A program made the translations under genes and the position numbers. A stretch of 63,329 nucleotides of DNA from IMG/VR virus record IMGVR_UViG_3300042520_003480; one strand, given 5' to 3'. This DNA comes from an uncultured virus (IMG/VR IMGVR_UViG_3300042520_003480). Taxonomy: Duplodnaviria; Heunggongvirae; Uroviricota; Caudoviricetes. Positions 28,993 through 58,276 of the stretch are shown piece by piece. The first letter of the stretch is position 1. Every line of letters begins with the position of its first letter. The notes beneath the pieces are model-generated. The model did not search any database. It saw only the letters and a list, made by a program, of their open reading frames with translations, and was not told the DNA's origin.

Positions 28993-28997
28993 AATTT

Positions 28998-29465: not shown

Positions 29466-29466
29466 A

Positions 29467-39125: not shown

Positions 39126-39131
39126 AATTAG

Positions 39132-39205: not shown

Positions 39206-39208
39206 GAA

Positions 39209-39283: not shown

Positions 39284-39289
39284 AAAAAT

Positions 39290-39364
39290 TGGAGCCGGCA
39301 CTCGGATTCGAACCGAGGACCGACGCATTACAAATGCGTTGCTCTACCACTGAGCTATGCCGGC
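39290..39364 (-). tRNA. tRNA-Thr(UGU)
   Basis: Cloverleaf with TT-TGT-AA and CCA. Confidence 0.95.
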
Positions 39365-39369
39365 TAAAG

Positions 39370-39445
39370 TGGTAGCGACGCTGGGACTCGAACCCAGTTT
39401 GTGTGCTTATGAGACACACCAGACCACCTGGCCTAGCCCATCGCA
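39370..39445 (-). tRNA. tRNA with CAU anticodon (Met/Ile2), atypical
   Basis: CT-CAT-AA, a normal T-arm and CCA; U1:U72 mismatch and a non-standard D-arm. Confidence 0.8.
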
Positions 39446-39457
39446 ATATGAAATTAT

Positions 39458-39604
39458 TTATGCCCATCCAATAAAATTACTATCTGTTTTTTTGTTGGAT
39501 TGGTCAACAGCTTTTTTCTTTTCTTCTTCTTTTTTCTTTTGCTGTTCTTTCTTAAAGTGATCTTTGAAAGGCATGTATGCAGAGGTTGTTTTTTCTACTT
39601 TCAT
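39458..39604 (-). CDS. small Lys/Glu-rich hypothetical protein
   Basis: Hand-translated MKVEKTTSAY...NFIGWA, between tRNAs. Confidence 0.45.
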   Translation of the reverse strand: MKVEKTTSAYMPFKDHFKKEQQKKKEEEKKKAVDQSNKKTDSNFIGWA

Positions 39605-39620
39605 TTAATGAAATTAATTA

Positions 39621-39695
39621 TGGCATCTCCAAGGGGATTTGAACCCCTACTCCCACCGTGAAAGGGTAGTGTGCTAACCATTACACTATGGAGAC
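39621..39695 (-). tRNA. tRNA-Glu(UUC)
   Basis: Cloverleaf with CT-TTC-AC and CCA. Confidence 0.93.
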
Positions 39696-39698
39696 AGA

Positions 39699-39775
39699 TG
39701 GTAGACCTGGTTGGATTCGAACCAACGACCCGCGCGTTATCAACACGCTGCTCTAACCAACTGAGCTACAAGTCT
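39699..39775 (-). tRNA. tRNA-Ile(GAU)
   Basis: Cloverleaf with TT-GAT-AA and CCA. Confidence 0.95.
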
Positions 39776-39787
39776 GTAATTGCTTAT

Positions 39788-39964
39788 TTATGGAAGTTCT
39801 ATAACAGCTTCTTCTGGATTTAAGATATCTTTGATTTCATCTTGAATCCGTCTAATTTCAACATTATATGCTTTTACAAACGCTTTCTTGCGCTTCTTAA
39901 TGTCTTCTAGCTCTTGGCAGAGTTGAAATACTTTTGCTTCTGTTGTGTTTGTGGTTTGTGTCAT
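39788..39964 (-). CDS. small coiled-coil hypothetical protein
   Basis: Hand-translated MTQTTNTTEAKVFQLCQELEDIKKRKK...VIELP. Confidence 0.55.
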   Translation of the reverse strand: MTQTTNTTEAKVFQLCQELEDIKKRKKAFVKAYNVEIRRIQDEIKDILNPEEAVIELP

Positions 39965-39979
39965 ATTTGTATTATTAAA

Positions 39980-40065
39980 TGGTGGGCAGAACTGGATTCG
40001 AACCAGTGAAGGCGTAAGCCAGCGGATTTACAGTCCGCCCCGTTTGGCCACTTCGGTATCTACCC
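39980..40065 (-). tRNA. tRNA-Tyr(GUA)
   Basis: CT-GTA-AA, long variable arm and CCA. Confidence 0.95.
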
Positions 40066-40073
40066 ATTAAAAT

Positions 40074-40159
40074 TGGTACTCGAGGTGGGACTCGAACCCA
40101 CACGGTATTACTACCAACGGATTTTAAGTCCGTTGCGGCTGCCATTACGCCACTCGAGC
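40074..40159 (-). tRNA. tRNA-Leu(UAA)
   Basis: CT-TAA-AA, long variable arm and CCA. Confidence 0.95.
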
Positions 40160-40162
40160 ATT

Positions 40163-40236
40163 TCGGAATAGAAGGATTTGAACCTTCGGCCTTCTGGTCC
40201 CAAACCAGACGCTCTACCAAGCTAAGCTATATTCCG
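40163..40236 (-). tRNA. tRNA-Pro(UGG)
   Basis: TT-TGG-GA; acceptor stem CGGAATA/TATTCCG. Confidence 0.95.
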
Positions 40237-40247
40237 GTTTAGTCATT

Positions 40248-40541
40248 TCAAAAATTATTCAAGTATTCTGGATGAGCTTGAAACAAGCTACTAAGGGCTC
40301 TTCCAAGAGCAATGCTGTTTCCAGTTTTTTTGCTAAAATTATCTTCGACAGAGCAAACAGCTTTTCCAATAATGTGGTGTTGTTTATCTGGAGTAGAGAC
40401 TTCGATCGTCGTCGATCCCCCACGAGCTGAGTTTTCAAAATACTGCTCTCCTCCAAATTTTTTTATACTTACTTGGTATCGGTTATGCATTACTCGTACT
40501 TTATAACCTTTCTGTCGAAGTTGCTTAATAGTGAATTGCAT
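40248..40541 (-). CDS. hypothetical phage protein
   Basis: Clean ORF with a TTGACT..TATTAT promoter upstream. Confidence 0.7.
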   Translation of the reverse strand: MQFTIKQLRQKGYKVRVMHNRYQVSIKKFGGEQYFENSARGGSTTIEVSTPDKQHHIIGKAVCSVEDNFSKKTGNSIALGRALSSLFQAHPEYLNNF

Positions 40542-40586
40542 GTGTTGTATAATACCTAAAAATAAAATTTAGTCAAACAAAAAATT

Positions 40587-40672
40587 CGGACAGAGTAGGA
40601 TTCGAACCCACGGTACCTTTCGGTACTTCTGATTTCAAGTCAGACGCCTTAGGCCAACTCAGCCATCTGTCC
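40587..40672 (-). tRNA. tRNA-Ser(UGA)
   Basis: CT-TGA-AA, long variable arm and G73. Confidence 0.95.
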
Positions 40673-40680
40673 TTATAGAA

Positions 40681-40770
40681 TGGCGGAACGAGAAGGATTT
40701 GAACCTTCGGAGGTTTTTAGGCCTCGGAGCTTTAGCAAAGCTCTGCCTTAAGCCACTCAGCCATCGTTCC
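40681..40770 (-). tRNA. tRNA-Ser(GCU)
   Basis: TT-GCT-AA, long variable arm and GCCA. Confidence 0.95.
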
Positions 40771-40775: not shown

Positions 40776-41229
40776 TGGTGGAGGCGAGGGGAGTTGAACC
40801 CCTGTCTTTATAATTTACATTAAAAGGTCTTCACATGCTTGAGTACATTTAACATTTCAGCTACCCTACGGTAACGGAGACAACAGGTTGTTTGGCTGCA
40901 CTAACCGAGTTTTATGTCTACCTATATGCGTGATTAAAGACCGCATATCACCTATGACTAATTTTACCACACTAGTCACCTCGTGCACGAACCTCTATTG
41001 TTCAAAGTAGATTTAGAGGATCCTCTACTAGGCTCTTAGGCTGCGAGAGCGTAGTCTTCAACGCCAGCGAGGAACTCGTCAGCATTGTTGAAGATATACT
41101 CGGCCTCAGCTAAGAGGTCAGAAGTGTTGTCTTCTGCGTTTAGTTTTTGATCTGCTTTTAACGTGGCCAACAGATCAACCACGGCATGCGCTTTTAATTC
41201 CGACTATAAATCGAAACCAGTACGCCCCC
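40776..41229 (-). ncRNA. ssrA: tmRNA
   Basis: 5' GGGGGCG..GGTTTCGA; 3' GGGGTTCAACTCCCC-TCGCCTCC-ACCA with a G3:U70 pair; tag ORF 41137-41036 ending YALAA*. Confidence 0.95.
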
Positions 41230-44582: not shown

Positions 44583-45788
44583 CTAAAAAATACCATCAAG
44601 TTCAGGCAAGTCTTTTCTCAAATCTCTATACTTTCCTTCTTCTTCAAACGCTTTTTTTATTTTATCTTCGAGGTGAGCAAGATTGGTATAACCAAGACCT
44701 AAGTTTATGTTTCCTGTGACTTCAGGAGCTCCTTTAACTCGCTCTGGTTTTGTTAACAACCCACCATATACACTAAAATCTCCAATAATCTTTTTAGGAC
44801 AACCTTCTAAATTTTCTTGTTTGCTTAATGCTGCGACTCCAAACCTTCCAGTCTTAAAAGTAAACGTAAACGGTTTTAAAAAACTAGGATCGTCCAGTTT
44901 ACTCAAATCTACCTCGAAGGGCATTTCCGTAGTATAATGATCTCCTGATACGACTCCGTTATACTTCATGAAATCTTGAATAAATTCGTTTGTAACGGTT
45001 TTTGCGTTCTTATATTTGTCAAAAGTAATGTACGCTCCTCTGTATGACTCCGCATCCATGTACCCTCCAGAGCCAGGCTTTGGCTTGCCTCTTAAACTTT
45101 CTATTAAATACTTGATTGTAAAACCTGCGTGTTCATAATTGTTTGCATCTTTGTCTTTATATGATGTGTACCCATCTCCTTCTAAATGTGAATGCATAAC
45201 ATGATAATATGGTCCTATCAAAATATAATCTTGAAGACGTTTGCTTTTTTTGACGTTCTTTCTAACTAATCTGTGTTCTGGATTAGTTTTTGACTGACCT
45301 AAAATAAAATAAACACTTTCGGTAAAATCATCTTTATTTTTTTCTGCTAACTGCTCATCTATAAGTGGCTGTTCATACCATTCAAAATTAAACGGAGCAG
45401 CTGTAAGATATTGCTTGAGAAGCTTTTCGTTTGCAGGTTGTGTCTGGTAATCAGTCCTAGCTTTCTTTTGAACCCTCATTGCTAGATCCTTTACTTCCGG
45501 TTTTGCATTAACAACACCCTCATATTTTTTTGCTGTCTCTCTGTTATCAAAAGGTCCAGCTAAAATAGTTGCCATGAACGCCTCCTTCTCTCCGTTATCA
45601 AATTCTAGCAAGTACTTTGAGTATGAACCAGGAACCGTTTTATATCCAACTACTTTTCCGGTCATTCCTTGAAATTTATAGGAACGTTTTGGTTGAGGGT
45701 TGTAGTAGCTTAGCTTCTTCGTAACGACTGCATATTCTCCGTTTTGAAAAGGAGCGCGAGTACCAGGCTGGGTGTAATCTTCAAACAT
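44583..45788 (-). CDS. PELxGIF-tagged protein with an N-terminal SH3/KOW-like domain
   Basis: Ends DLPELDGIF; N-terminus resembles 53023..53340. Confidence 0.85.
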   Translation of the reverse strand: MFEDYTQPGTRAPFQNGEYAVVTKKLSYYNPQPKRSYKFQGMTGKVVGYKTVPGSYSKYLLEFDNGEKEAFMATILAGPFDNRETAKKYEGVVNAKPEVKDLAMRVQKKARTDYQTQPANEKLLKQYLTAAPFNFEWYEQPLIDEQLAEKNKDDFTESVYFILGQSKTNPEHRLVRKNVKKSKRLQDYILIGPYYHVMHSHLEGDGYTSYKDKDANNYEHAGFTIKYLIESLRGKPKPGSGGYMDAESYRGAYITFDKYKNAKTVTNEFIQDFMKYNGVVSGDHYTTEMPFEVDLSKLDDPSFLKPFTFTFKTGRFGVAALSKQENLEGCPKKIIGDFSVYGGLLTKPERVKGAPEVTGNINLGLGYTNLAHLEDKIKKAFEEEGKYRDLRKDLPELDGIF

Positions 45789-45801
45789 ATCTTTAATTAT
45801 T

Positions 45802-46167
45802 TTAAAATATTCCTTCTAGTTCCGGAAGCTTTTTAATAAGCTCGTCAAAGTCTGGCTCTAGTGTTATCCGTACGTCCGTTTTGTCAATGTGTTGTTGAAG
45901 TGATGAATTATTAAATGCTTTTTCAATTGTTGTCATTATAAGTTCTTTAAGTTTATCCACATTTGTGTTAAGATCTTCTTCTTTGATATCATAAACAACG
46001 AGAACAGGTCCCTTGTTGGGTGCTTTAATAATTTTATGGCGAAATTTAAATCGTTCTATAAATTTTTGAATAAGAGTCATGCCAAAAATATTTTCTAGCC
46101 AGACTTGGGAGAACTCAGGAGCTTTTACTATTGATGGATAGCTTATTTGTAATTTAAACGTTTTCAT
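45802..46167 (-). CDS. PELxGIF-tagged hypothetical protein
   Basis: Ends KLPELEGIF. Confidence 0.85.
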   Translation of the reverse strand: MKTFKLQISYPSIVKAPEFSQVWLENIFGMTLIQKFIERFKFRHKIIKAPNKGPVLVVYDIKEEDLNTNVDKLKELIMTTIEKAFNNSSLQQHIDKTDVRITLEPDFDELIKKLPELEGIF

Positions 46168-46737
46168 TTAAAATATTCCTTCTAGTTCTGGCAACTTATT
46201 AACCATTTGTTGCATTTTAATTCTTTCTTCTCTCCACTCAAGATAATCCTCTTTAAACAGCGTTCCTTTGCCAACATTTAGCATAACATGCTTAAGTCTG
46301 TTCTTGAGTTGCTCTTGAAGAAAGTTTGAAATTTCATCAGGATAACATTTTTTGTAAACCGTTTTCATATTATTATAATCAAATCCGGAACCCCCAATAA
46401 ACAATTGTCCTTCATCTTCTCTAAGGCCACATTGCATAAAATCGTTCCATACGTGTTTAATAGCTACTGTATATCCAGCATCAAAATCATCAATTATTTT
46501 ATTCTCACGGAAAAACATTACTATACCTCTATTCCATGCAGTAAGCGAATCTGCACGAACTCTCGCAAAAATATTATATTTTTGCATTTTTTTGTCGCTA
46601 ATGTCGTATATAGAAGCGGTACGCAAAACCTTCATCATATTCAAAATGTCTGATTCATTTTTTACAAAAACAGCTTGAATACCATCGGAGATGTCTTTGA
46701 ATAACTTTTCTTCTTCTTTTAAGAATTTAAATTCCAT
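46168..46737 (-). CDS. PELxGIF-tagged hypothetical protein
   Basis: Ends KLPELEGIF. Confidence 0.85.
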   Translation of the reverse strand: MEFKFLKEEEKLFKDISDGIQAVFVKNESDILNMMKVLRTASIYDISDKKMQKYNIFARVRADSLTAWNRGIVMFFRENKIIDDFDAGYTVAIKHVWNDFMQCGLREDEGQLFIGGSGFDYNNMKTVYKKCYPDEISNFLQEQLKNRLKHVMLNVGKGTLFKEDYLEWREERIKMQQMVNKLPELEGIF

Positions 46738-46738
46738 A

Positions 46739-49252
46739 TTAGAATATCCCTTCCAATTCCGGCAAATTCTTTTTTAACTTTCTGAGCTTTTTGCCTTCTC
46801 TGTCAACATAAAGTTTTCCGAAAATTAAACTATTGATTCTATAGTCATAATCTTCTCCTAATTTTGATCCTAGATATCGATCAAGAAAAAACGCAGCTTC
46901 CTTCAATTCTGTCATGTAAGTCTCGTATATCTTTAACGGCACATCACAAAAAACTATACGCAATGGATCGTGAAGAATTTCCCACTCGTATGACAATTTG
47001 TATGATTTTGTATCCCAATTTTCTTCCATCGCGTTTGCAGCAACTCTGTTAAGTTCTGTTGCTATTATTTTTAATATTTCTGGAGAAGTTTTAGTTCCCT
47101 TTGAGTCCGTAGGTTTGACTTCTATTGCAACATCTACATAATTTTTATCATCTGTAGTCTCTTCAGATTCAAAAATCCCTTTGAGTTCTGGAAGCTCATT
47201 TGAAAGAAAATAATGACGAGTTTTCCAAACAAATTCTGGCATGACTGAAATATACTCTCCTGTTATTTTTTCCCGTCTTTTTAAATCTCTTAGACTATCA
47301 TAGTAGTCGTTATAAATGGTTGTTTCCCAGTGATGTCTCCAAGGGCGTAATTCTTTTTGAACGTTTGGGCTTTCTTTTAAAAAGCTTTCGGTCAGATCAA
47401 CCACTAACTCCATTACAATCTTTCCGTTCTCTTCTTCAACTGTCTCTATAGAGGTTTTTTCGAACGCATTTGCTACTGATTTTAAAATTTTATGGAGATC
47501 TTCTTTTTGGCGTGCATAACCTTTATATCTAGTTACTAGCACTGTTTCTGGTTCCTCAGATTCAAAAATCCCTTCTAGCTCAGGTAATTGCTGTTGTAGA
47601 TCATGAAGTCCTTTGTTGATCAATTTCATTTCACAATTCTTGAAAATTTCAGGCAATCTTTTATTTACTACATCCTCCCACTCCATGTCAGGAGCGACTC
47701 TTCTGGCGTCATGCACAAACATTTGTTCTAAAGAACGTTTTAGCATAGTTACTTTACCTGTTTGTGTGTAAAAGTCAGGATTCATCAATTGTATTATTGC
47801 ATGAACCTCCCTGGGACCTTTATCGTACAATGTGTATCTAAAAGTAGTTCTTTTCTTCTCTTCAAGAAACTTCCATAACAGTTCTTTGTTTGTTTTATCT
47901 AAATTTGTAAATTTAGCAATAATGCTATCAGGTTGATTAGTTTTGCTTTCAAAAATTCCTTGAAGCTCAGGAAGATCCTTTAACATCTTATCATAACGAG
48001 AAATCCACTTCGCTGTATAATCAATAGATTCCCTTATCTCAAAGTCCTTTTTAGTACCGTTCCACTGTGTCTGTATTAATCTCGCTAAAGCGTTTTTCTT
48101 TTCTTCACTTAAAGGTTCAGAGGAATTCTCTCTTTCAATAGAAATTGCAAACTTAAATCCTTTGTTGTAACGAATTATCTTACAACTACTAATAGAATCA
48201 GGCATCAGATATCTAGTCAAGTAACTCATTTTAACCTTAAATGACTTTAAAGCTAACCTGACTCTGTCATGATCAGTAGTTCCGTACGTAGGATCGAATG
48301 TTAAAATGAGTTTATCCTTCTCTTGTTTAGACTCAAAAATTCCCTTAAGCTCAGGAAGCTCTCCTGTCATTCTTCTAATTTTTGCCGACTTCTCATCTAT
48401 GTCTATATCTCCTATAGCAAAAAGGTCTAGATAGTATTCCCCTCCATCTAACCATGCATCTAGATTAGCAACAACTCCATATAGTTTGTTTGCATAAGCT
48501 TCAGCAACTTTAGTTGGTACATCGAGAATAACAAACCCATTTGGTTTCAGCTCATATTCGTAGGTATAAATTCCCTTTTCGTCAACATCCCTGCTCATTC
48601 GGTTTTTTGTATATCTTATGAGCTCATAAGCAATAGCATCTATAATTTCGGGAGTGGTTTCATTACCAAATTTATCTTCAGGGTTTACTTCTACTTTTAT
48701 ATCCACTACATCTTTATCTTCTTCAGATTCAAAAATTCCCTTAAGTTCCGGCAACTCTTTTTCCATCTCTTTATACTTGGTCTTTATACCGATCAATTTT
48801 GGACGAAAGAAGCTTACCCAAGAAAGAGTGTTATATTTCTTAGTGTCTTTTCCGGCAGAAAATTGCCTTCCAATGCTATTGCTGATATCATGCATTGAAG
48901 ATCTGAGTCTGCTACTATATGCTCCTAAAATTTCTATAAAGTCCATTTTTAACAACACTGGTTCTGTTAAATCAAGATCATATCCTATAACCGCTAATGT
49001 ATTTTCTCCTAGGTCTTGAGTCTTTAATTTAAAGTCCCAAGTTTTATTTGTCTGTGCTTTGGCTATTTCTTCTGAATGATTTTCTAAAAAATCTTTTAAT
49101 TGGTTTTTTTGCTCTTCGGAGTCTAACTGATACACTAGCCACATTTCTTTTACATCTTCCGCTCTTTTAACGGACTCAATAGGAATTAAATCATAATCTC
49201 CTAATTGTTTGGAAGATTCGTTAACTCTATAAAATTTTTGAAAACTTATCAT
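46739..49252 (-). CDS. six-module PELxGIF polyprotein
   Basis: Five internal LPELxGIFES junctions and a terminal LPELEGIF. Confidence 0.9.
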   Translation of the reverse strand: MISFQKFYRVNESSKQLGDYDLIPIESVKRAEDVKEMWLVYQLDSEEQKNQLKDFLENHSEEIAKAQTNKTWDFKLKTQDLGENTLAVIGYDLDLTEPVLLKMDFIEILGAYSSRLRSSMHDISNSIGRQFSAGKDTKKYNTLSWVSFFRPKLIGIKTKYKEMEKELPELKGIFESEEDKDVVDIKVEVNPEDKFGNETTPEIIDAIAYELIRYTKNRMSRDVDEKGIYTYEYELKPNGFVILDVPTKVAEAYANKLYGVVANLDAWLDGGEYYLDLFAIGDIDIDEKSAKIRRMTGELPELKGIFESKQEKDKLILTFDPTYGTTDHDRVRLALKSFKVKMSYLTRYLMPDSISSCKIIRYNKGFKFAISIERENSSEPLSEEKKNALARLIQTQWNGTKKDFEIRESIDYTAKWISRYDKMLKDLPELQGIFESKTNQPDSIIAKFTNLDKTNKELLWKFLEEKKRTTFRYTLYDKGPREVHAIIQLMNPDFYTQTGKVTMLKRSLEQMFVHDARRVAPDMEWEDVVNKRLPEIFKNCEMKLINKGLHDLQQQLPELEGIFESEEPETVLVTRYKGYARQKEDLHKILKSVANAFEKTSIETVEEENGKIVMELVVDLTESFLKESPNVQKELRPWRHHWETTIYNDYYDSLRDLKRREKITGEYISVMPEFVWKTRHYFLSNELPELKGIFESEETTDDKNYVDVAIEVKPTDSKGTKTSPEILKIIATELNRVAANAMEENWDTKSYKLSYEWEILHDPLRIVFCDVPLKIYETYMTELKEAAFFLDRYLGSKLGEDYDYRINSLIFGKLYVDREGKKLRKLKKNLPELEGIF

Positions 49253-49293
49253 TATCCCTGTTATTTATTTCAAATTTGATATAAATATATCAA

Positions 49294-51057
49294 GTGAGCG
49301 TATACTACAGAAAAATAGATGAAGCAATTTACTCTGCATATCAGTCGAGAATTCTTCTAAAAGAAGAAGCTCAGGGTATTAAGCGCACAGACAAAATGGA
49401 TCCGGAGTTAGAGGCTCAATTCAAACACCGACTTGATATTTGCAAAGCTCACCTTTATAGGGACTTTCCTTGGTACGGAATTTTACTTTCCAAACTTCAC
49501 ACCGTACCCACATATGACATAGACACGATGGCAGTAGATAACTTCGGAAACATCTATATGAATCCAGAGTTTACTATGAAGATGACCCCTGAAGAGACAA
49601 TGGGAGTCTTAGCTCACGAGTGCATGCATATCATGACGCTGAGCTTCTTCAGGCAACATAGTAGAGACATGAAGTTGTGGAATATTGCTACAGACTTCAT
49701 GATGAATTTAGATCTCGTTGAAATGAAAATGTCTCTCCCTGAAGGAGGATGTATTCCTGAAGAAAGAGGAGGCCGTTGGTTTGCTGTTATTCCTAGAGGA
49801 GACGGACAGCCCGATCTAGAGTACGACATAACTGATTTGTCTGCTGAAGAGCTTTATGACAAATTTGAAAAAGATTTAGATAAAGACAAGGAACAACAAA
49901 AACAATCCGGTAAAAAAGATAAGAAACCATTTAAAGTCGGAGACAGAGTTCAATCAAGAAATACTGGAAAGAACGGAACGATTAAAAAAGTTGGCGGATT
50001 GCCACCCAATCAAACTCTTGAAATTGATTGGGATAATGAAGTCACAGAAGCCATCCAAAAGGGCGTTCCCTCTTCTGAGGTAATGCCACTTCTTTCCGGT
50101 GAAGTTGAAATGGATCCCAATGGAGACCAACAAGAAGGAGAAGATTTTGCTCTTGATAAAGATGCTAAAATAAAAATGAAGCCTCAACAAGGAAAGCCGT
50201 CTCCTTCAAAAGGACAAACTTCTGACGTTAAGATAAAAGGAGATTTACAAAAAGTTTTTGATGACCTTGCAGCAAAACGAGAAAAATTTGACAAACACAT
50301 TACTTCGACTGATGCAAAACCAACTCCTTTAGATACAGGAGACCCAGATCTTATGCCAAACCTTGAAGGTGACGCTCACAATCAATTAAAAGATAAGGTT
50401 CAATCAGCAATGACAGCTATTGGTCAAAGAGGATTATCTGCTGGTGGTCCAAGATCATTCCAAAAGAATTTGCAACGTACAAAAACAAATTGGAGAAATC
50501 TTTTAAGAAACTTTTTGTCAGCAATGGAAAGATCTCGTCCAACTTGGTCAAAACCAAAGAAAAGAGCTTTCGCTGCTGGTTATTATGCTCCTGGTTTAAG
50601 AAAAGAGCGCAAGAGTCTCGATGTCGTTGTTGCCATCGACACTAGCGGTTCGATTAGTGATAGGATTATTGGTCTGTTTGTTTCTGAAATTTTTAATATT
50701 TCCAAAGCGTTTCCTAAGGTCCAAATGAAAATTATTCTTTGGCATACTACTGCTTATGCTGACATCGACATAGATACTAAAAAAGTATCTCCAGCACAAG
50801 TTTTAAATATGCTCAATAACCTACCATACGAAGGTGGTGGAACGGAATTAACTTCTGTTAAGGCTTACTTGGACAAAGAATATCCCAATGAAGCATTTGG
50901 AGGTATTATCGTATTCACTGATGGTTATGTAGAAGAGACACCGAGCTTCCCTAAACTTTCAGACCAAAAGAACAAACTGTTTTTATTAACTCCAGATGGA
51001 GATGATAAGACACTAAAAAAATACGGCACTACAGTAAAAATTGATGTTTACCAATAA
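49294..51057 (+). CDS. DUF2201-like metallopeptidase-VWA protein
   Basis: TMAVD, LAHECMH and WNIATD; VWA MIDAS IDTSGS, GGGT and VFTDGY; GTG start. Confidence 0.88.
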   Translation: MSVYYRKIDEAIYSAYQSRILLKEEAQGIKRTDKMDPELEAQFKHRLDICKAHLYRDFPWYGILLSKLHTVPTYDIDTMAVDNFGNIYMNPEFTMKMTPEETMGVLAHECMHIMTLSFFRQHSRDMKLWNIATDFMMNLDLVEMKMSLPEGGCIPEERGGRWFAVIPRGDGQPDLEYDITDLSAEELYDKFEKDLDKDKEQQKQSGKKDKKPFKVGDRVQSRNTGKNGTIKKVGGLPPNQTLEIDWDNEVTEAIQKGVPSSEVMPLLSGEVEMDPNGDQQEGEDFALDKDAKIKMKPQQGKPSPSKGQTSDVKIKGDLQKVFDDLAAKREKFDKHITSTDAKPTPLDTGDPDLMPNLEGDAHNQLKDKVQSAMTAIGQRGLSAGGPRSFQKNLQRTKTNWRNLLRNFLSAMERSRPTWSKPKKRAFAAGYYAPGLRKERKSLDVVVAIDTSGSISDRIIGLFVSEIFNISKAFPKVQMKIILWHTTAYADIDIDTKKVSPAQVLNMLNNLPYEGGGTELTSVKAYLDKEYPNEAFGGIIVFTDGYVEETPSFPKLSDQKNKLFLLTPDGDDKTLKKYGTTVKIDVYQ

Positions 51058-51065
51058 ATAACACT

Positions 51066-52538
51066 ATGGAATTAGAAAGCATTACAGAATCTCCGTTCTT
51101 GAACGCATATAAAAGATTTGTGCTCAAAGAAGCAAAAAAAGAAGCCATTGCTGCAGACATGGAAGCCAAGGCCGCTCCAATGGTTAACAAAATTAACCAA
51201 CCTGAAGCTCCTCAAGCTGAAGACGAAGACGATGAGATGGAATGGGATAGCGGAGCAATTGAGACAGAAGATACCTCTACTCTCAGCAAATACGATTATC
51301 AGCGTTTGCATGATTTTATCTCGCTATCATACAGAACAAAAAGAGCTCTGTTAATTTACGGAGATCCTGGCATTGGCAAGAGTCAAATGGTTCAGCAATT
51401 TACTAGACAAATGGCTGCAAGTAAAGGTAAAGCATATCTTGATTGGGACGAGGCCAATAACAATCAACAATTGGATGCCATCAAGAATCCAGGTAAATAC
51501 TTTTTGTATATAGACGTTAGAGCTGACTCTCTTGATCCAACCGATCTTGCCGGCATTCCAAAACTTCAAAGCAATGAAGAGTTTCTTGAGACCCAAATTC
51601 CTAAATGGCTCTACATAATGGCTCAACCAGAGTCTGATGGTATCTTATTCTTAGATGAATTGAATAACGCAGAGCCACAAATGATTAAAGCTTTGTATAA
51701 AGTTGTGGATAAAAAAGTTGGCAACGTAAAGTTATCAGAAAATTTTGGTATTCTTGCTGCTGGCAATCTTGGAGCTGAATTTGGCGGCAATCCACTTCCT
51801 TGGGCTCTTACAAACAGATTTGAAAGTGGTGTACTTGTTGCTGATGCTGAATCTTGGCTCTCGTACGCTGAAAAAGCTGGAGTTGATAAAAGGATTATTG
51901 CTTTCGTTAAGTCTGAACCAGAAGTCAACTTCAATCCAAAACCACCAGGGGGATTTGGTGGCGGTGACACACATATCACATGGGCTTCCCCAAGAGCAAT
52001 GATGATGCTTTCTGATAAAATTACTCAACTCAGAAAAGCTTATGCAGAGGCAAAAGCCGAAGGTCATCCTATTCAAACCCCTATAATTGCTGCAGTCAAA
52101 CAAAGTGCTGTTGGACTTTGCGGAGAACAATGGGCAAGAAGATTTGACGCATTCATGAGACACTTTAAATCATTTGATTTTGGTGGAATTGTTAAGAGTG
52201 CCGAAAGTGGAGAATTGCAAGCAGAAAAGAGAGACAAACTTCATGCTCTTCTCATGTTTGTCATGGGCAAGCTTAAGCCAGCTCTTAAGCGCTCAGAAGA
52301 ACAAAAAACCATCTCCGAAGATGATAAAGGAGTATTCATCGGTCTTGCTAAAATCACAAACGACTTCAAGCCAGAATGGAAAGTTAATTTGTTTTCCCTT
52401 TTAAAGAAAGACCTTACCGTTGAACAATTACAAATCTTGATGACCTTCTTATTAAGAGGAGATTATGACGCAAAGACTAAAAAGGTCTTCATAGAAGAAG
52501 CTCTTCCTAAAATTAAATCAATAACATCCTACAAATAA
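51066..52538 (+). CDS. MoxR-like AAA+ ATPase
   Basis: GDPGIGKS, DLAGIP, LFLDELN, AAGN, ALTNRF and SPR. Confidence 0.9.
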   Translation: MELESITESPFLNAYKRFVLKEAKKEAIAADMEAKAAPMVNKINQPEAPQAEDEDDEMEWDSGAIETEDTSTLSKYDYQRLHDFISLSYRTKRALLIYGDPGIGKSQMVQQFTRQMAASKGKAYLDWDEANNNQQLDAIKNPGKYFLYIDVRADSLDPTDLAGIPKLQSNEEFLETQIPKWLYIMAQPESDGILFLDELNNAEPQMIKALYKVVDKKVGNVKLSENFGILAAGNLGAEFGGNPLPWALTNRFESGVLVADAESWLSYAEKAGVDKRIIAFVKSEPEVNFNPKPPGGFGGGDTHITWASPRAMMMLSDKITQLRKAYAEAKAEGHPIQTPIIAAVKQSAVGLCGEQWARRFDAFMRHFKSFDFGGIVKSAESGELQAEKRDKLHALLMFVMGKLKPALKRSEEQKTISEDDKGVFIGLAKITNDFKPEWKVNLFSLLKKDLTVEQLQILMTFLLRGDYDAKTKKVFIEEALPKIKSITSYK

Positions 52539-52545
52539 TAAAATT

Positions 52546-53022
52546 ATGAAAGAATATCGACACGCCCGCAACATTGCAGAACAGATTTATTTTTGTGGCA
52601 AGAGAAGGCTGACAACAGAACAAAAAGAGATGCTGAGAAATTCTCCTTTCTCCAATCTTTTGGAGATGGTCGAGAAGCCAAATTTTATCAAACTTGCTGA
52701 AACAGTTGAAAAGCAATTGACTGACGCTAAGCCAGAAAAGCCTAAATCTTCTCCTGATTATTCTCCTAGCAAATCAAGATACCTTACTGGATATCATGCA
52801 GGGGAAATCAAGGAGCTAATTAGTCACATTGAGGATCACTTCAAGCTCGGAGTTCCATACAACTACAACGATCTTCCTGCTGATAAGCTCAAAGAATTCA
52901 TCAATCAATATGCTGAACACAAAATTTTTGATGATCACACAAAAGACTTAGTTCTCAGAGTTAAAGAGCAAGAACACCCAGAAGAGATCATGGGAACTTT
53001 AAGATTGTACGCTAGACATTAA
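52546..53022 (+). CDS. hypothetical protein downstream of the VWA/AAA pair
   Basis: ORF on the same strand, with TAAATA-like AT-rich sequence upstream. Confidence 0.7.
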   Translation: MKEYRHARNIAEQIYFCGKRRLTTEQKEMLRNSPFSNLLEMVEKPNFIKLAETVEKQLTDAKPEKPKSSPDYSPSKSRYLTGYHAGEIKELISHIEDHFKLGVPYNYNDLPADKLKEFINQYAEHKIFDDHTKDLVLRVKEQEHPEEIMGTLRLYARH

Positions 53023-53340
53023 TTAAAAAATTCCTTTTAGTTCGGGAAGTTCTTCCATCATTTTTCTCATCTTTATTTCTTCTTCTGTAGGTCGTCTTAA
53101 AAAGTGAGAATGAAGTCCAAATATGCTTCCATTCGAAAGCTTTACTGCATATTTAGAATAAGCTCCAGCTGCATACTTATAACCTACTATTTCACCAATT
53201 TGATCAATGGCCTGCCTTGATTTAGCAGAGTGATACGAGTCCCACTTTCCTACATCTTCTATTTTTACTTCGTCTCCTATTTGAAACTTGGCTTTAGGTC
53301 CTGGTTGGCCGTAGCCCTTTAATCCAAATAATTCATTCAT
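53023..53340 (-). CDS. PELxGIF-tagged SH3/KOW-like protein
   Basis: KFQIGDEVKI...GEIVGY; ends ELPELKGIF. Confidence 0.85.
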   Translation of the reverse strand: MNELFGLKGYGQPGPKAKFQIGDEVKIEDVGKWDSYHSAKSRQAIDQIGEIVGYKYAAGAYSKYAVKLSNGSIFGLHSHFLRRPTEEEIKMRKMMEELPELKGIF

Positions 53341-53768
53341 ACGTCAAATATTCCTTTTAATTCAGGATGTTCGTCAGTCATATCATCATACGGATCTGTG
53401 ACTATTTTAAATTTTTCTTTCTTAGGTATATCAGAAAGAGAAAAAATTTTAGGAGTCTTTACAACCTCAATAATTCTTCTGTATACTTTGTGCGGATCTT
53501 CCCTCACATGCAAACTTTTTGGAATAATCACGTACACGAGATGCTCATAGTCAACTCTGCGTATTATTTTTACGCCTTCTCTTTTTAATCCTGACTTGCT
53601 AATTGCTTTCAACATTAGCTCTGTGTCATCAGGCATGATTATATAAGCACTATAATAGTTTTCAAGGTCTCTACCAAAAGCTATACCTTGTTCATCAAAA
53701 ATAGAAGGAACTTGACCAACAATCTTGTTGTATGCTTGCTCCAGCAATATTTGATCCTTAGTTTTCAC
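53337..53768 (-). CDS. leader- and PELxGIF-tagged hypothetical protein
   Basis: MKTKDQILLEQAY...EHPELKGIFDV. Confidence 0.85.
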   Translation of the reverse strand: MKTKDQILLEQAYNKIVGQVPSIFDEQGIAFGRDLENYYSAYIIMPDDTELMLKAISKSGLKREGVKIIRRVDYEHLVYVIIPKSLHVREDPHKVYRRIIEVVKTPKIFSLSDIPKKEKFKIVTDPYDDMTDEHPELKGIFDV

Positions 53769-53782
53769 TAAGTTATTTATAT

Positions 53783-54079
53783 TTAAACTGGAATTAATGC
53801 TGGACGAGCAAAATCTTCTTGTGGAGTATAGAAGACATAATAATCGTGACCGGCTTCACTCGGATACCCAAAATTAGCGGCATCCTCTCTTTTAGCTACA
53901 TAAGCTGTCTTAAAGGATTTCCCTTCTTCCATTTTTCTTTTTAAATTAGAACAATCGTTCATATCATCTAAAAACATAATGTCTTCGGTTGGGCCAGAAT
54001 AGTAACTAAAGTCTTGTTCTGGAGATTCATTGATTGCTTTGTATGCTTCTTCTAGCAATTGTTGGTCTTTGGACTTCAT
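53783..54079 (-). CDS. leader-bearing hypothetical protein without the C-terminal tag
   Basis: MKSKDQQLLEEAYKAINES. Confidence 0.8.
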   Translation of the reverse strand: MKSKDQQLLEEAYKAINESPEQDFSYYSGPTEDIMFLDDMNDCSNLKRKMEEGKSFKTAYVAKREDAANFGYPSEAGHDYYVFYTPQEDFARPALIPV

Positions 54080-54088
54080 GTATTTTAT

Positions 54089-54640
54089 TTAATCAAAAAA
54101 GATGCCATTTAACTCAGGGAGCTCTGTTGAGAATCTCTTTTCCATTTCGTACTGCTTTTTTTGTTCTTCTGTAGGAAAATCAATTAGAGATTCGTCAATG
54201 GCATATACTTCTCCGTTTGGTCTTTTAATTCCTTTAAGCGTTTCAATAACATCGCTCGAGTTCCCTTTAAACATTTCGCTACTTTTTATTTGCTGCCTGC
54301 CAACCACTATGCCACACTTTCCTGCAACTTTATTCCATTGTTTTACATACTCAGGTTTTAGTCTAGAAAAATTCAACCAATGACACTCTTCAGATGTCAT
54401 TACATAAGCAACATCCCCAATCTCTATTCGTACTCCGCAGCACTTATTAAATGGTTTATTTGAACCACATATACAAGGGCCTTTGCGTTGTTCTGAATCT
54501 TTTTCTAGTTTTTCCCATCCAGGATCTGGAGCAACTGGCTTATTCTCTTCTCCTTCCTCGAGGTGAATAAGATGATTATTCTTGCAATAAACCATTCCCA
54601 TATACAATTCCTCAAGTAACTTTTGATCTGTTGATTTCAC
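54089..54640 (-). CDS. leader- and PELxGIF-tagged protein with a SEC-C motif
   Basis: MKSTDQKLLEELY; PCICGSNKPFNKCCG; ends ELPELNGIFFD. Confidence 0.85.
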   Translation of the reverse strand: MKSTDQKLLEELYMGMVYCKNNHLIHLEEGEENKPVAPDPGWEKLEKDSEQRKGPCICGSNKPFNKCCGVRIEIGDVAYVMTSEECHWLNFSRLKPEYVKQWNKVAGKCGIVVGRQQIKSSEMFKGNSSDVIETLKGIKRPNGEVYAIDESLIDFPTEEQKKQYEMEKRFSTELPELNGIFFD

Positions 54641-54657
54641 TCATTATACTTAATATT

Positions 54658-54948
54658 TCAAACAGCTGTCATTACTTTTTTAGAATTAACTATTTTCTTC
54701 ATCCATTCTGTATTCTGATAACTAAGATTGACCCCAGATGATTTGGATACCGGATGGCTATCAACGATGTCACTCAGAGCTTGGCTCAATTCATTTAATT
54801 GTTCTAATGGTTTTTTTCTGTGATCAATCTCTTGATCAATAATGGCTGACCCAGCTTTGTATTCAGCTAGCAAAACATCGACTATGTGATTGAGTTCTTG
54901 TATCTTAACTTTAGTATCGTCTACTAGATCATGTATTGTGTTAAACAT
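54658..54948 (-). CDS. hypothetical helical protein
   Basis: ORF with a TTGACT promoter upstream. Confidence 0.65.
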   Translation of the reverse strand: MFNTIHDLVDDTKVKIQELNHIVDVLLAEYKAGSAIIDQEIDHRKKPLEQLNELSQALSDIVDSHPVSKSSGVNLSYQNTEWMKKIVNSKKVMTAV

Positions 54949-54990
54949 AAATTAATGCTCTATGTATTTTAATTTAAGTCAACAAATTAT

Positions 54991-55322
54991 TGGCTGAGGC
55001 CGCATTGGCTACCGGGTCTTTATCCCGTTGGACGCTGGCTGTTCATTTAACTCTGCCTACTCGAGACCAAATAGTATTCAGCCGGGGTACCTCGGCATTA
55101 TTGAAGCCCACAGGTGATCGTTTCTGTCGCTTGCTTTCTCAGCCGCCGACTGTATGGAAGAAGGGGGCCAAAGGTTCCGAACCCTCTCGAAAGGCCTGTC
55201 CTTCACGCATTCGAGTGCTCCGTAGTGTACTACCACTCTCCATAAAAATTATCAAATAACAAGTTCCGATTTTGTGTTGTGAATTTTTATTCACCGTTGG
55301 CTCATCGGGAACCAACTCTCAT
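54991..55322. ncRNA. candidate structured non-coding RNA(s), three domains
   Basis: GC-rich island with closing helices GGCTGAG/CTCAGCC and TATGGA/TCCATA plus a pseudoknot-like third domain. Confidence 0.6.
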
Positions 55323-55364
55323 AAACTTTATTTATTTTCGTTTAAAAATTACAAAAGTCAACTG

Positions 55365-55760
55365 CTAAAGATCGCTTGATAAATCTTCGTGAAAATAAGC
55401 GTTGGTTACGGGAGTGTCATCGTGTCTCCATTTCATCCATGCTTCAGCAATAGATTTTGGATCATTCCACCACGCTCTTAGAGGTATTGATTTCCACTCA
55501 CTATCCCAAACCCATAGGCGATTCTTTCCTGGAGGATACAGGTAGGCACACGTAGAGTGTCCCCATTTTTCTGTATTAATTGAAAGAACTCTTGCTTGGA
55601 TATCTTCTTCTCTCAAGCCTTGCGCTACAGCAATCGCTTCAGGCAAACATGCTTTTCTATAGGAGCCGACCCAACTAGGAACTCCGGTGGGTGGTTTACT
55701 TGTGCAGCCAATTAAAAAGAGCGCTAAAAGGCATCTACAAAATGTGTTAATAAATTTCAT
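55365..55760 (-). CDS. lipoprotein with a transglutaminase/papain-like Cys-His-Asp arrangement
   Basis: Lipobox LIGC; ACLPEA, WGHSTC and VWDS. Confidence 0.6.
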   Translation of the reverse strand: MKFINTFCRCLLALFLIGCTSKPPTGVPSWVGSYRKACLPEAIAVAQGLREEDIQARVLSINTEKWGHSTCAYLYPPGKNRLWVWDSEWKSIPLRAWWNDPKSIAEAWMKWRHDDTPVTNAYFHEDLSSDL

Positions 55761-55826
55761 TGTTCTTATTTATATCAAGAATCATAAATATTTTTTCAAA
55801 GTATCTAACAAAAGATAAATACTTTT

Positions 55827-56366
55827 GTGAACAAAGACCAAAGACTCCTAGAAGAAGCTTATAGAAGTATCTATGAGTCAAAATTTTATACAGATCCAAG
55901 GTTGACTAAACGAGAGCAAGAGTTTGTCAACAAAGTCGTAGACGAAATAGTGGACAACAATTATACGATAAAATACACCGATGCTCCAACTGCTCGAGTT
56001 GATGAGCAAGAAAGAAACACTGCTTTAGCTACCATTAAAAAGATAATTGAATACATGTTTAAAGATTTTCCAGGCATACATATTCCGCTTATTCGAGCTG
56101 CTCACCAAACACTAGCAGCTTGGCATTCTACATTCACAGAAATGATAAAAGCAAAACTTGTTCCAGAAGACAAGAAGGATAGAGAAGAAATCAAAGACAC
56201 GCTCAAAAATCATATAGCAACTTATATAGCAAAGTTTTTTGAAGACGCTGGCAAACCAGGAGGTTTTCTAATTAAAAACACTGCTGAATACCTCAAACAC
56301 AGAGAAGAGGAAATTAAATATGGTCCGATGCGCGATGAGCTGCCTGAACTAAAAGGAATATTCTAA
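55827..56366 (+). CDS. leader- and PELxGIF-tagged hypothetical protein
   Basis: MNKDQRLLEEAYRSIYES...ELPELKGIF. Confidence 0.85.
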   Translation: MNKDQRLLEEAYRSIYESKFYTDPRLTKREQEFVNKVVDEIVDNNYTIKYTDAPTARVDEQERNTALATIKKIIEYMFKDFPGIHIPLIRAAHQTLAAWHSTFTEMIKAKLVPEDKKDREEIKDTLKNHIATYIAKFFEDAGKPGGFLIKNTAEYLKHREEEIKYGPMRDELPELKGIF

Positions 56367-56845
56367 TGAAGGCATTTGAACAATTAGTACTAGAAGCAAT
56401 GGAAGAAGAGTTCACAATAATTCTTTGGTGTTCATGGTTTCATTTGTTGAATGACGAGTACAAAAAAGAAATCCTATCTATGTTTAAATGGTTTGGTCGC
56501 AAGCATCCTCAAGGGATAGCTCACCAATTCCATCTAAGAGATTGGCAGAATCCAATGTATAAACAAGTACAAGTTGATTACGAGGAAGATGAAAACGGAC
56601 CAAAGATAACTTTAACAAACATACGTTGTAACAGATATCAAGCAGGAAGCTTATTAGATGAAATACGTCTCAAAGCGTTTGGTGAGTATCTTCATCGTAA
56701 CAAAATAATGAAATACTTAAAAGACACAGTAAAAATACCAATTGAAGGAACTCGGCTTTTTAGAGATCCAACAATAGACGGAAAGGCTATTGGTAAGTAT
56801 GACGATATGGTAAAAGACCTTCCAGAGCTAGAAGGAGTATTTTAA
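56366..56845 (+). CDS. PELxGVF-tagged protein, paralog 1
   Basis: MKAFEQLVLEA...DLPELEGVF; TAATG coupling. Confidence 0.85.
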   Translation: MKAFEQLVLEAMEEEFTIILWCSWFHLLNDEYKKEILSMFKWFGRKHPQGIAHQFHLRDWQNPMYKQVQVDYEEDENGPKITLTNIRCNRYQAGSLLDEIRLKAFGEYLHRNKIMKYLKDTVKIPIEGTRLFRDPTIDGKAIGKYDDMVKDLPELEGVF

Positions 56846-57321
56846 TGAAAGCGTTTGAACAATTAGTACTGGAAGCAATGGAAGAAGAGTTCACAATAAT
56901 TCTTTGGTGTTCATGGTTTCATTTGTTAAATGAGAAATACAAAAAGGAAATCTTAGATATGTTTAGATGGCATAGTAGGAGGCATCCAGATGGAATAGCT
57001 TTTCAGTTTCATCTAAGAGATTGGCAGAATCCGATGTATAAACAAGTGCAGGTTGATTATGAAGAAGACGAAAACGGACCAAAAATGACTTTAACAAACA
57101 TACACTGCACAAGATATCAAGCTGGAAGCTTATTAGATGAAATACGTCTTAATACGTTTAAACTCAAAGGGAGAGACAACACACTAAAGTATCTGAGAGA
57201 TACAGTAAAAATACCAATTGAAGGAACTCGGTATTTTAGAGATCCAACAATAGACGGAAAAGTTTTCGGTAAGTATGACGATATGGTAAAAGACCTTCCA
57301 GAGTTAGAAGGAGTATTTTAA
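56845..57321 (+). CDS. PELxGVF-tagged protein, paralog 2
   Basis: Near-identical tandem copy of the preceding gene. Confidence 0.85.
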   Translation: MKAFEQLVLEAMEEEFTIILWCSWFHLLNEKYKKEILDMFRWHSRRHPDGIAFQFHLRDWQNPMYKQVQVDYEEDENGPKMTLTNIHCTRYQAGSLLDEIRLNTFKLKGRDNTLKYLRDTVKIPIEGTRYFRDPTIDGKVFGKYDDMVKDLPELEGVF

Positions 57322-57683
57322 TGAAAACAAATGACCAACAACTGTTAGAAGAAGCGTATAATGCTGTCGTAACAGAAGGAGTTTTGCCTTCTAAGGCTTT
57401 TAGATCAAAACCTTTACATCAAAAGAAAGTGCTTTATCGTTTATTTGCGAAACCAGACAAGAAGATGGGAGGCAAGTATTTCTGGGGAGAAAAATTATCT
57501 TGGGCTGGAGAATTTGAGAGTGTCGAAGAGGCGTTAGTTTACTTAAAAAACTTGTACGTGTATAGCGAAGATATGGAGTACGTAATAAAAGAAGTTATAA
57601 TTGAGTACTCAGAGAAGACAGTTGAACAAAGTGGACTCCGGCAAATGAGAGATGATCTTCCGGAACTTAAAGGTATTTTTTAA
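57321..57683 (+). CDS. leader- and PELxGIF-tagged hypothetical protein
   Basis: MKTNDQQLLEEAY...DLPELKGIF. Confidence 0.85.
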   Translation: MKTNDQQLLEEAYNAVVTEGVLPSKAFRSKPLHQKKVLYRLFAKPDKKMGGKYFWGEKLSWAGEFESVEEALVYLKNLYVYSEDMEYVIKEVIIEYSEKTVEQSGLRQMRDDLPELKGIF

Positions 57684-58276
57684 TGAAGACAAAGGACCAA
57701 CAACTCCTAGAACTTTTATATGAACAAGTAGTTGAAGGTTCTAAAGATTTGCTTCCAGAAGAAAAAAAGTTTTCAGAGGCAGCTGCTAAGATTATTTCCA
57801 AACAAATCTTCACAGCAGTAGAAGGAAGAATTCACAACAATGGAAAGTTAGACTTTGAATACCTAGGGGATCTAATTGATACTCATTTTGACAAGGCTTT
57901 AGATATTTTTAGTCCTGATTACGATTATTTTGTAAGAAGAGTTGTTAGAGTACATTTAGCACACGATTTGTTTAATCGACTCGTTTTTGTCAAAACGATA
58001 GACGGCAAAGTCAATGTATGCTTCCGACCTGCAAAATTTGTTACAACAGATCAATATAATGAAGACAGATTGTTTATTCCTATTGAAAATAAGCAAGAAG
58101 TGGAAGAACAGTTAAGAAAAACAATAGAAGATGTTATTCTGGAGCGTTATGATTACTTCTTAAAGTATCCTCGTTCATCAACGTCAAATGAAACAAAGTG
58201 GGTTGCGTGGAGAAAAGAAAAGCTCAAATATAAAGCTCTCACTAACGAACATCCCGAACTCGAAGGAATATTTTAA
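57683..58276 (+). CDS. leader- and PELxGIF-tagged hypothetical protein
   Basis: MKTKDQQLLELLY...EHPELEGIF. Confidence 0.85.
   Translation: MKTKDQQLLELLYEQVVEGSKDLLPEEKKFSEAAAKIISKQIFTAVEGRIHNNGKLDFEYLGDLIDTHFDKALDIFSPDYDYFVRRVVRVHLAHDLFNRLVFVKTIDGKVNVCFRPAKFVTTDQYNEDRLFIPIENKQEVEEQLRKTIEDVILERYDYFLKYPRSSTSNETKWVAWRKEKLKYKALTNEHPELEGIF

Follow-up and report, generated by a model that had tools for sequence, protein, structure and literature searches.

The window analysed here is the whole 63,329-nucleotide (nt) stretch of the IMG/VR record IMGVR_UViG_3300042520_003480. It derives from a very divergent myovirus of the T4-like kind, with gp32-, DnaB-, RecA/UvsX-, Rad50/Mre11-, UvsW- and primase-like proteins and a family-B polymerase that is 31-33% identical to the pelagimyophage and cyanomyophage polymerases in GenBank, and the metagenome runs with its sequence are labelled lake or freshwater. 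On its minus strand lies an open reading frame (ORF) of 837 amino acids (aa) made up of six modules, each of which ends in the same peptide (core LPELxGIF), here called the C-tag; separate genes ending in the same tag lie on either side of it (Table 1). The 837-aa ORF is genuine, a polyprotein-like chain of six cassettes that fold independently, and the tag system is likewise genuine and restricted to a narrow clade.

Table 1. Features of the window discussed in the text (the arrow marks a putative cut)
Feature	Position	Strand	Remarks
Six-module polyprotein-like ORF, 837 aa, ATG start	46739..49252	-	Stop codon included; ORF and tag scan
Candidate late promoter core ATAAATA	49262..49268	-	Starts 16 nt upstream of the ATG of the 837-aa ORF
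N-terminal leader MISFQKFYRVNE↓S of the 837-aa ORF	49217..49252	-
Module 1, 174 aa	48731..49252	-	Predicted alpha/beta domain
Junction 1, LPELKGIF-ES	48725..48754	-	PELxGIF at 48731-48751; residues 171-179 (KGIFESEED) with a predicted local distance difference test (pLDDT) score below 50
Module 2, 132 aa	48335..48730	-	Paralogue of module 6
Junction 2, LPELKGIF-ES	48329..48358	-	PELxGIF at 48335-48355
Module 3, 128 aa	47951..48334	-	Eight-member family, every member fused
Junction 3, LPELQGIF-ES	47945..47974	-	PELxGIF at 47951-47971
Module 4, 129 aa	47564..47950	-	Weak relative only
Junction 4, LPELEGIF-ES	47558..47587	-	PELxGIF at 47564-47584
Module 5, 131 aa	47171..47563	-	No relative found
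Junction 5, LPELKGIF-ES	47165..47194	-	PELxGIF at 47171-47191
Module 6, 143 aa	46742..47170	-	Predicted compact alpha/beta domain, flexible N-linker and tag end
Terminal tag LPELEGIF, then TAA	46742..46765	-	PELxGIF at 46742-46762
Free tagged gene, 189 aa	46168..46737	-	Family is a fused module in five other proteins
Free tagged gene, 121 aa	45802..46167	-	G003 orthologue 65% identical
Free tagged gene, 401 aa	44583..45788	-	N-domain in the same family as the 53023-53340 gene
VWA/DUF2201_N metallopeptidase (49294-51057) and MoxR-like AAA ATPase (51066-52538)	49294..52538	+	Between the two tag clusters
Free tagged gene, 105 aa	53023..53340	-
ORF with N-motif and C-tag plus DV	53337..53768	-
ORF with N-motif and C-tag plus FD	54089..54640	-
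Operon of five tagged genes (179, 159, 158, 120 and 197 aa)	55827..58276	+	TAATG stop/start overlap; three with N-motif
ORF with N-motif and C-tag, 139 aa	58273..58692	-
Eight ORFs starting MKxKDQxLLEEAYxxV	53337-53768(-), 53783-54079(-), 54089-54640(-), 55827-56366(+), 57321-57683(+), 57683-58276(+), 58273-58692(-), 62628-63083(-)

Six-frame scanning of the whole window for the pattern P[ED][LIMV]xG[ILMV][FYW] gave 18 matches, all within 44,586-58,296 and zero elsewhere: five are internal to the 837-aa ORF, one forms its C-terminus and 12 lie at most two residues from the C-termini of other ORFs. This bears out an earlier note on the same DNA, which had described the ORF as six tagged modules with GIF-E/S joints; the tag was given too short there, its full form, K-[YFWL]-x-x-[LM]-x-x-K-L-P-E-L-x-G-I-F, being about 16-17 residues long. 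After the 13 terminal tags in the window the stop codon is TAA in ten cases and TAG in one, and in the other two a pair of extra residues precedes the stop. Synonymous codons are used in different copies of the tag (CTT, TTG, CTA and CTC for Leu, all four CCN for Pro, GAA and GAG for Glu), and therefore the repeat is maintained at the peptide level. All five internal tags of the 837-aa ORF are followed by Glu-Ser, with the Glu codon GAA four times and GAG once. The note remarked that these codons are one base away from a stop codon, but a simple origin from mutated stops is not supported, since the Met of the next gene is kept at none of the junctions and Phe is followed by the conserved Glu-Ser and then by a polar linker.

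A word-indexed search of proteins turned up 13 relatives of 570-1215 aa that have several modules and share these junctions. For an exhaustive HMMER search (E ≤ 0.001) the profile was made from the last 40 residues of 63 modules; it ends at Phe, and therefore the residue after the tag was under no selection. The tag was found in only 51 cluster representatives among 1.84 billion proteins, 22 of which have at least two tags. Glu follows 58 of the 60 internal tags in these representatives, the other two reading G-E-S and N-E-S, and Asp follows none. Glu is also present at 72 of 73 internal tags in the pattern-biased set and at all seven locus-derived junctions, which the search pattern could not have selected. 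The position after the junction Glu is far freer (Ser in 46 of 73), and the residue two before it is Ile in 79, Val in 10, Leu in nine and Met in eight of 106 cases. At terminal tags the stop comes directly after Phe in 33 of 46 cases, and the remainder end in short stubs (D, S, E, NS, SDL, TETNI and ESEYSSLFEKYLS). Conservation of the junctions in homologues had been named beforehand among the points on which the earlier proposal could fall, and at the 60 unselected internal tags it holds.

Searching the deposited phages by tblastn with the 837-aa ORF and the 139-aa tagged ORF gave no match even at E ≤ 10. A search of viral contigs for loci related to the 837-aa ORF confirmed no relative, and the nearest record, a 16-kb fragment (G001), has no tag. 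Loci with a single match in the tag-pattern scans were mostly due to chance (6 of 7, most of 123, and 8 of 10 in three scans) and were set aside.

A sortase sorting signal consists of LPXTG, a hydrophobic segment and a basic tail. The tag has LPELxG-I-F instead, is followed directly by the stop in the 33 terminal cases given above and has no hydrophobic segment. A 2A/StopGo peptide has the C-terminus D(V/I)ExNPG and is followed by Pro; no NPG-P occurs at any of the junctions, which read GIF-E-S. The layout of the junctions, a conserved upstream C-terminal peptide and one invariant downstream first residue, is nevertheless the one that co-translational separation of the 2A/StopGo type would have, and other recoding at the GAR codon after the tag could also be imagined, the same tag preceding real stops in the free genes. 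However, an NPGP-like motif is absent, and the tag is kept at the ends of free genes, where separation is needless, so that it must have another function. A separation mechanism of the 2A type is also not known in bacteria, and we consider recoding very improbable.

A clamp-binding role for the tag was considered and dropped; the window polymerase ends in DLFDMFGM. The C-termini of the polymerases are ...TDLFDMFGM in the window (6602-9151, minus strand) and ...TDLFELFGDN in the incomplete contig G003 (32968-35520, minus strand), both unlike the tag; we take these tails to resemble the clamp-binding tails of the T4 type.

A repeated tag could mislead assemblers, and GAA is one base from TAA; the 837-aa ORF might thus be thought an assembly chimaera across tag DNA, or a decaying fusion left by neutral read-through of old stops. 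Run X4, from a separate study of 2016, yielded contigs without differences from the window over 46600-47278, 47315-47592 and 47690-49350, and because these identical contigs cover all five junctions, the fusion is no assembly artefact. Proteins with several tags moreover make up 22 of the 51 representatives and come from many assemblies, while against decay stand the conserved Glu-Ser, the absence of Met at the junctions and the predicted folding of the modules. Artefact and decay are already contradicted by the independent contigs and the census, and their probability is negligible. The variant strains X6 and X9 have many differences nearby, with none at the junction Glu codons among the differences listed (79 more are unlisted). 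In RNA run X18, short contigs fall on parts of the 837-aa ORF, two of them without differences at 48927-49220; such contigs cannot prove transcription.

Splitting at the tags gave 108 modules, which were clustered into families. Modules 2 and 6 of the 837-aa ORF are paralogous, as had been noted before (35% identity over 126 aa, E = 1e-16), and their family is fused in seven of seven members, the G003 homologue being cut by the contig end and uninformative. Other families are mixed. The 105-aa gene at 53023-53340 is 60% and 54% identical to internal polyprotein modules in L039 and L048, and its homologue is a separate gene in two more contigs; this family (family 1) has nine free and four fused members, and family 4 has two free members, one of them 5'-cut, and five fused. 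The search for the modules as separate genes in related phages, one of the checks suggested earlier, therefore found homologues free in some phages and fused in others. No stand-alone homologue of module 6 was found among the proteins of 78-251 aa (42 candidates only), and a search for shorter proteins with the whole ORF gave three matches, every one multi-module or cut. An alignment that drew every fragment onto the last tag was discarded.

The order of the modules varies among the multi-tag proteins. P0015 and P0016 (417 aa) are P0008 and P0005 (584 aa) with precisely one module removed, the ends of the deletion lying within the tag repeat, and a contig of X9 has about 471 extra bases with a terminal-tag joint on both sides. 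That these whole-module insertions and deletions end inside the tag repeat points to recombination at the tags. The modules are cassettes, free or fused, which are shuffled and are gained and lost at the tags. Free and fused homologues, shuffling, one-module insertions and deletions and the predicted domains all show several independently folding units within one ORF, as in a polyprotein. The tagged genes are accessory: in G006, a complete relative whose polymerase is 80% identical to that of the window, the C-tag is absent altogether, and where the window has the two tag islands and the VWA/MoxR block there are unrelated small ORFs instead, while the flanks on either side are conserved. The pool of cassettes belongs to a small clade of T4-like freshwater phages, in which they are kept as separate genes or fused.

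In the AlphaFold model made with four homologues, module 6 folds into one compact domain of the alpha/beta type (mean pLDDT 78.5, predicted template modelling score (pTM) 0.73), whose N-terminal ESEETTD and last six tag residues have pLDDT below 50. Modelled together, modules 1 and 2 form two domains (pLDDT 69.7, pTM 0.46), and the junction between them is one of the internal segments of low pLDDT (Table 1). Structure prediction, also among the checks suggested earlier, thus points to separate domains joined by a junction that is predicted to be flexible, and the models present the tag as a helix followed by an exposed LPELxGIF. Foldseek found no match for the module 6 model in PDB or BFVD at E ≤ 0.001, and its best VIA Z of 7.1 was to generic ferredoxin-like folds, within the stated background of the tool. 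Pfam gave no match at E ≤ 0.001 for the 837-aa ORF or the tagged ORFs of the window and, for 42 further tagged proteins (E ≤ 0.01), none above the curated cut-off; the tagged ORFs of the window had no PHROG match at E ≤ 0.001.

A tag end and a junction that are exposed and flexible, as in these models, would also suit a protein that stays uncleaved, like beads on a string, in which the tag is a docking motif for one common phage or host partner and the 837-aa protein is multivalent. The motif would then work at a C-terminus or internally, the junction Glu replacing the carboxylate of the chain end. An acidic residue does follow Phe at several natural ends (GIFD four times, GIFE, GIFDV and GIFFD), a different acidic C-terminus ending in Phe, DKDFDIDLEDF, recurs on proteins of other phages that carry the N-motif described below, and cleavage itself is a deduction and not an observation. 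However, a carboxylate alone should allow Asp, which is accepted at true ends and occurs at 0 of 60 junctions, and the two exceptions to Glu retain E-S shifted by one residue. The same modules exist as separate genes, so that physical linkage is not required, and no partner was identified. We regard docking as rather unlikely.

The reading that we prefer, at a probability a little short of even, is that the tagged proteins are late-expressed proteins which enter the prohead and are separated by a protease of the T4 gp21 type that cuts after Glu. They would be accessory proteins entering the prohead like T4's internal proteins and like Alt, and the prohead protease (gp21/Peptidase_S77 type) would separate the modules by cutting each junction after the Glu of I-F-E↓S, possibly with an extra cut at L-P-E↓L; the DNA coding for the tag would double as the joint for cassette recombination. 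Prohead loading, the identity of the protease and the cleavage itself are what we infer from the observed architecture, conservation, cassette behaviour and phage context, together with the modelled flexibility of the junction. At the sequence level the junctions agree with the gp21-type rule of (I/L)-x-E, cut after Glu and with no Asp (Glu in 58 of 60, Asp in none, and I, V, L or M two residues before in 106 of 106). T4 gp21 requires residues 8 and 10 of the capsid-targeting sequence (CTS) in order to process it, and an Asp in position 10 prevents this (PMC9026906); Alt is cut at ITE-6 and LTE-619 and hence has propeptides at both ends (PMC5694885). The strings of the tag junctions also occur in gp21 substrates of T4 itself: residues 21-25 of gp22 are S-I-F-E-S, and the N-terminal region of gp23 has both LPE and IFE.

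A second motif, the N-motif MKxKDQxLLEEAY, begins six of the 13 C-tagged ORFs of the window. It resembles the N-terminus of T4 gp22, MLKEQLIAEAQKI, and the T4 CTS, MKTYQEFIAE (bioRxiv 10.1101/2021.01.19.427310). Altogether, 76 distinct ORFs on about 55 IMG/VR viral contigs begin with the N-motif, and their bodies (median 145 aa) are unrelated; a shared N-terminus on unrelated bodies is the pattern described for internal proteins in T4 reviews (PMC3012670). In relatives, an N-motif ORF lies directly after the prohead-protease gene in five of 39 loci by a strict test and in eight with a looser motif, and a MLKDQKLIAEAY ORF lies just upstream of that gene in three of 38 loci. The T4 gene order there is 20-67-68-21-22-23, and the two placements are thus the positions of T4 genes 22 and 67/68. 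Leaders of the form M-x-x-F-x-K-x-Y...(I/L/V)-x-E-(G/S/N) begin 15 of 30 multi-tag proteins, the 837-aa ORF included.

Two side observations concern these termini. P0030 (844 aa) consists of two units in tandem, and after its C-tag junction comes an internal N-motif copy (...LPELEGIFENKTRRLNVSDQKLLEEKY...); therefore the N-motif can be internal too. The N-motif proteins of other phages have the recurrent C-termini ...DKDFDIDLEDF and ...KSGKKITSDKVKAKKK, the loci concerned being L181, L183, L222 and L223 (one 66.5-kb viral contig) and L167, L171, L176, L185 and L200; C-terminal tags may differ by clade.

Peptidase_S77 is encoded in four of the five large N-motif records, and the complete G006 encodes it together with Gp23 and a scaffold-like ORF. 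Searches of the incomplete records G001-G004 found no Peptidase_S77, and those of the tag-bearing G002-G004 (26-58% complete) no Gp23 either. The heptamer ATAAATA lies 8-23 nt upstream of 12 of the 82 ORFs of the window, and seven of the 12 are in 46.7-58.7 kb. Four of these seven head tagged operons and have it at a distance of 12-16 nt; the others are the VWA gene, the MoxR gene and one ORF with no tag. In G006 the heptamer stands before the protease gene (-21), the scaffold-like gene (-18), genes close to these and a gene with the N-motif, and in G003 it precedes the ORF adjoining the sheath gene.

Several points weigh against loading into the prohead and cleavage there. The evidence comes from sequences and models, and the prohead protease of the window phage itself is presumed from its relatives. 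A cut after Glu does not account for the function of the tag itself and, as the free genes stop at Phe, would leave the fused modules one residue longer; the natural ends GIFD, GIFS, GIFE and GIFSDL indicate that a free Phe carboxylate is not obligatory. Sites of the form (I/L)-x-E are enriched and not depleted inside the modules: the bodies contain 272 where 213 were expected (z = +4), and there is a similar enrichment of (I/L)-x-D. The C-tag is present on one of 71 complete N-motif ORFs from viral contigs, so that either tag can occur apart from the other. In the 538 kb of the 47 protease loci no ORF ends in the C-tag, and the 837-aa ORF is without the N-motif, its leader being only loosely CTS-like. 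As for late expression, ATAAATA is presumably a late-promoter core, but it also stands before a primase-like ORF of the window, and TATAAATA shows no enrichment over the window (8 occurrences against 5.9 expected).

The association of the tags with a different putative protease is a further objection. The window and G003 have both the tags and the VWA/MoxR pair (55-62% identity), and G006 has neither. The VWA/DUF2201_N metallopeptidase with its MoxR-like ATPase, which the earlier note did not mention, is a live alternative protease: it would recognise the tag and cut the junctions independently of the head, and a cut between Phe and Glu would give the fused modules the same C-terminus as the free genes. 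The pair sits between the two tag clusters with the same upstream motif, and the VWA protein has an HExxH (AHECMH) and a DUF2201_N match at E = 5e-26. On the incomplete contig G003, however, the pair is at 4.4-8.2 kb and the tags are at 121.5-124.5 kb, and hence they are not adjacent. No homologue of the pair was seen in the tag-bearing L039/L072, L048, L073, L075, L016, G002 and G004, all of them fragments, and G005 has a remote homologue and no tag. The peptidase has relatives in 430 deposited phage records, a collection in which tblastn with the 837-aa ORF and with the 139-aa tagged ORF had no match, and the joint absence from G006 is explainable by replacement of one variable island. A modelled complex of the metallopeptidase with modules 1 and 2 scored 0.00, which gives no verdict. 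Cleavage by this pair seems to us improbable.

For prohead loading and cleavage, the head-maturation context gives circumstantial support through the CTS-like motif, the late-type motif, the protease of a relative and SIFES in T4 gp22; the interpretation in the earlier note is thus partly supported, and the head-protease mechanism is well motivated but unproven. A fuller version, which we put forward tentatively and hold to be doubtful, is that the C-tag acts as a portable equivalent of the CTS at the C-terminus, while the DNA coding for it is a recombination joint. Effector cassettes, shuffled between single genes and polyproteins, would be loaded into the prohead, cut by the prohead protease at L-P-E↓ and I-F-E↓, and injected with the DNA as a customised set.

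Other features of the window and of G003 were recorded alongside. A phage-borne transfer-messenger RNA at 40776-41229 on the minus strand (Rfam RF00023, 121 bits; the ARAGORN tag peptide ends in YALAA) adjoins a cluster of 10 tRNA genes at 39131-40770. G003 encodes, besides its MoxR/VWA pair, GroEL, Hsp70/DnaK and a ClpB/ClpA-type AAA+ protein (L155:1545-5434, L158:6853-9381), and a 98-aa ORF of GroES size adjoins GroEL. Its DnaB-like helicase (L155:9821-11278, minus strand) has Hint/intein-type matches, and the 453-aa orthologue in the window (3423-4784) is without them. The minus-strand regions 10453-21521 and 28228-29480 of the window hold a sugar/methyl-transfer block (N-acetylglucosamine transferase, WbqC, DegT-like protein, several methyltransferases and DUF5672), together with PTPS-like and 4Fe-4S/radical-SAM-type ORFs, and these genes may form a DNA or surface modification pathway. 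Two paralogous ORFs of about 122 aa, 38754-39125 (plus strand) and 62255-62623 (minus strand), end in ...RLRHLGYV and ...RLRLLGYI, have ATAAATA before each and have a homologue in G006. The 445-aa ORF at 60343-61680 (minus strand) carries passenger-associated-transport repeats (PATR, E = 8e-15) and has a hydrophobic C-terminus.

If prohead loading and cleavage are correct, T4-like phages would deliver accessory proteins as a tag-delimited polyprotein that is cut inside the head, an organisation and mode of cargo loading absent from the T4 and giant-phage head accounts in their available parts (PMC9026906, PMC3012670, PMC5694885). The word 'polyprotein' does not occur in the accessible text of PMC9026906 or PMC5694885, and a full-text literature search for the motif strings found nothing relevant. 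There would then be a second, C-terminal loading or processing signal beside the N-terminal CTS, which has already been used for packaging foreign proteins into T4 (PMC9026906). The cassette behaviour may allow a phage lineage fast diversification of its injected proteins. The resemblance of the N-motif to the CTS and to the scaffold N-terminus makes the idea of core entry by scaffold mimicry directly testable, and the modules, which match no known family, form an untouched reservoir of proteins that are candidates for host takeover or anti-defence.

Among known systems, the polyproteins of RNA viruses and retroviruses likewise combine several functional units in one ORF, with a conserved junction at which a viral protease can act. 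Here, in contrast, the cassettes are accessory and interchangeable, exist singly as well and do not make up a fixed essential set, and their cleavage is postulated. The cargo-loading peptide of encapsulins is a short conserved C-terminal peptide on unrelated cargo, and by analogy the C-tag may be a shell-loading signal too; unlike in that system, no encapsulin is encoded in the window, and the shell would be a T4-type prohead. In the giant phages phiKZ, 201phi2-1 and SPN3US, head proteins are also cut after Glu within a short motif, propeptides have several such sites, and internal or ejection proteins are numerous (PMC9026906, PMC5694885). Their motif is (S/A/G)-x-E, however, and in the available parts of these reports no repeated delimiting tag is described. 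T4 Alt, a packaged ADP-ribosyltransferase, is cut by gp21 at both ends (PMC5694885), and six window ORFs have conserved peptides at both ends; the C-propeptide of Alt, in contrast, has 63 residues and is no shared tag, and the Pfam scans found no Alt-like domain in the tagged proteins. The tagged proteins differ from the internal proteins of T4 in that their tag lies at the C-terminus, has about 16 residues and shows no sequence relationship to the CTS, and in that they can be concatenated, with up to eight modules (P0007), which is unreported for T4 in the available parts of PMC9026906, PMC3012670 and PMC5694885. The two also have features in common: the T4 proteins IPI, IPII and IPIII, which carry the CTS and are processed by gp21, are also hypervariable accessory proteins that have only a short terminal (I/L)-x-E peptide in common, their genes also lie in variable islands, Peptidase_S77 is present in both lineages, and the N-motif of the window is CTS-like.

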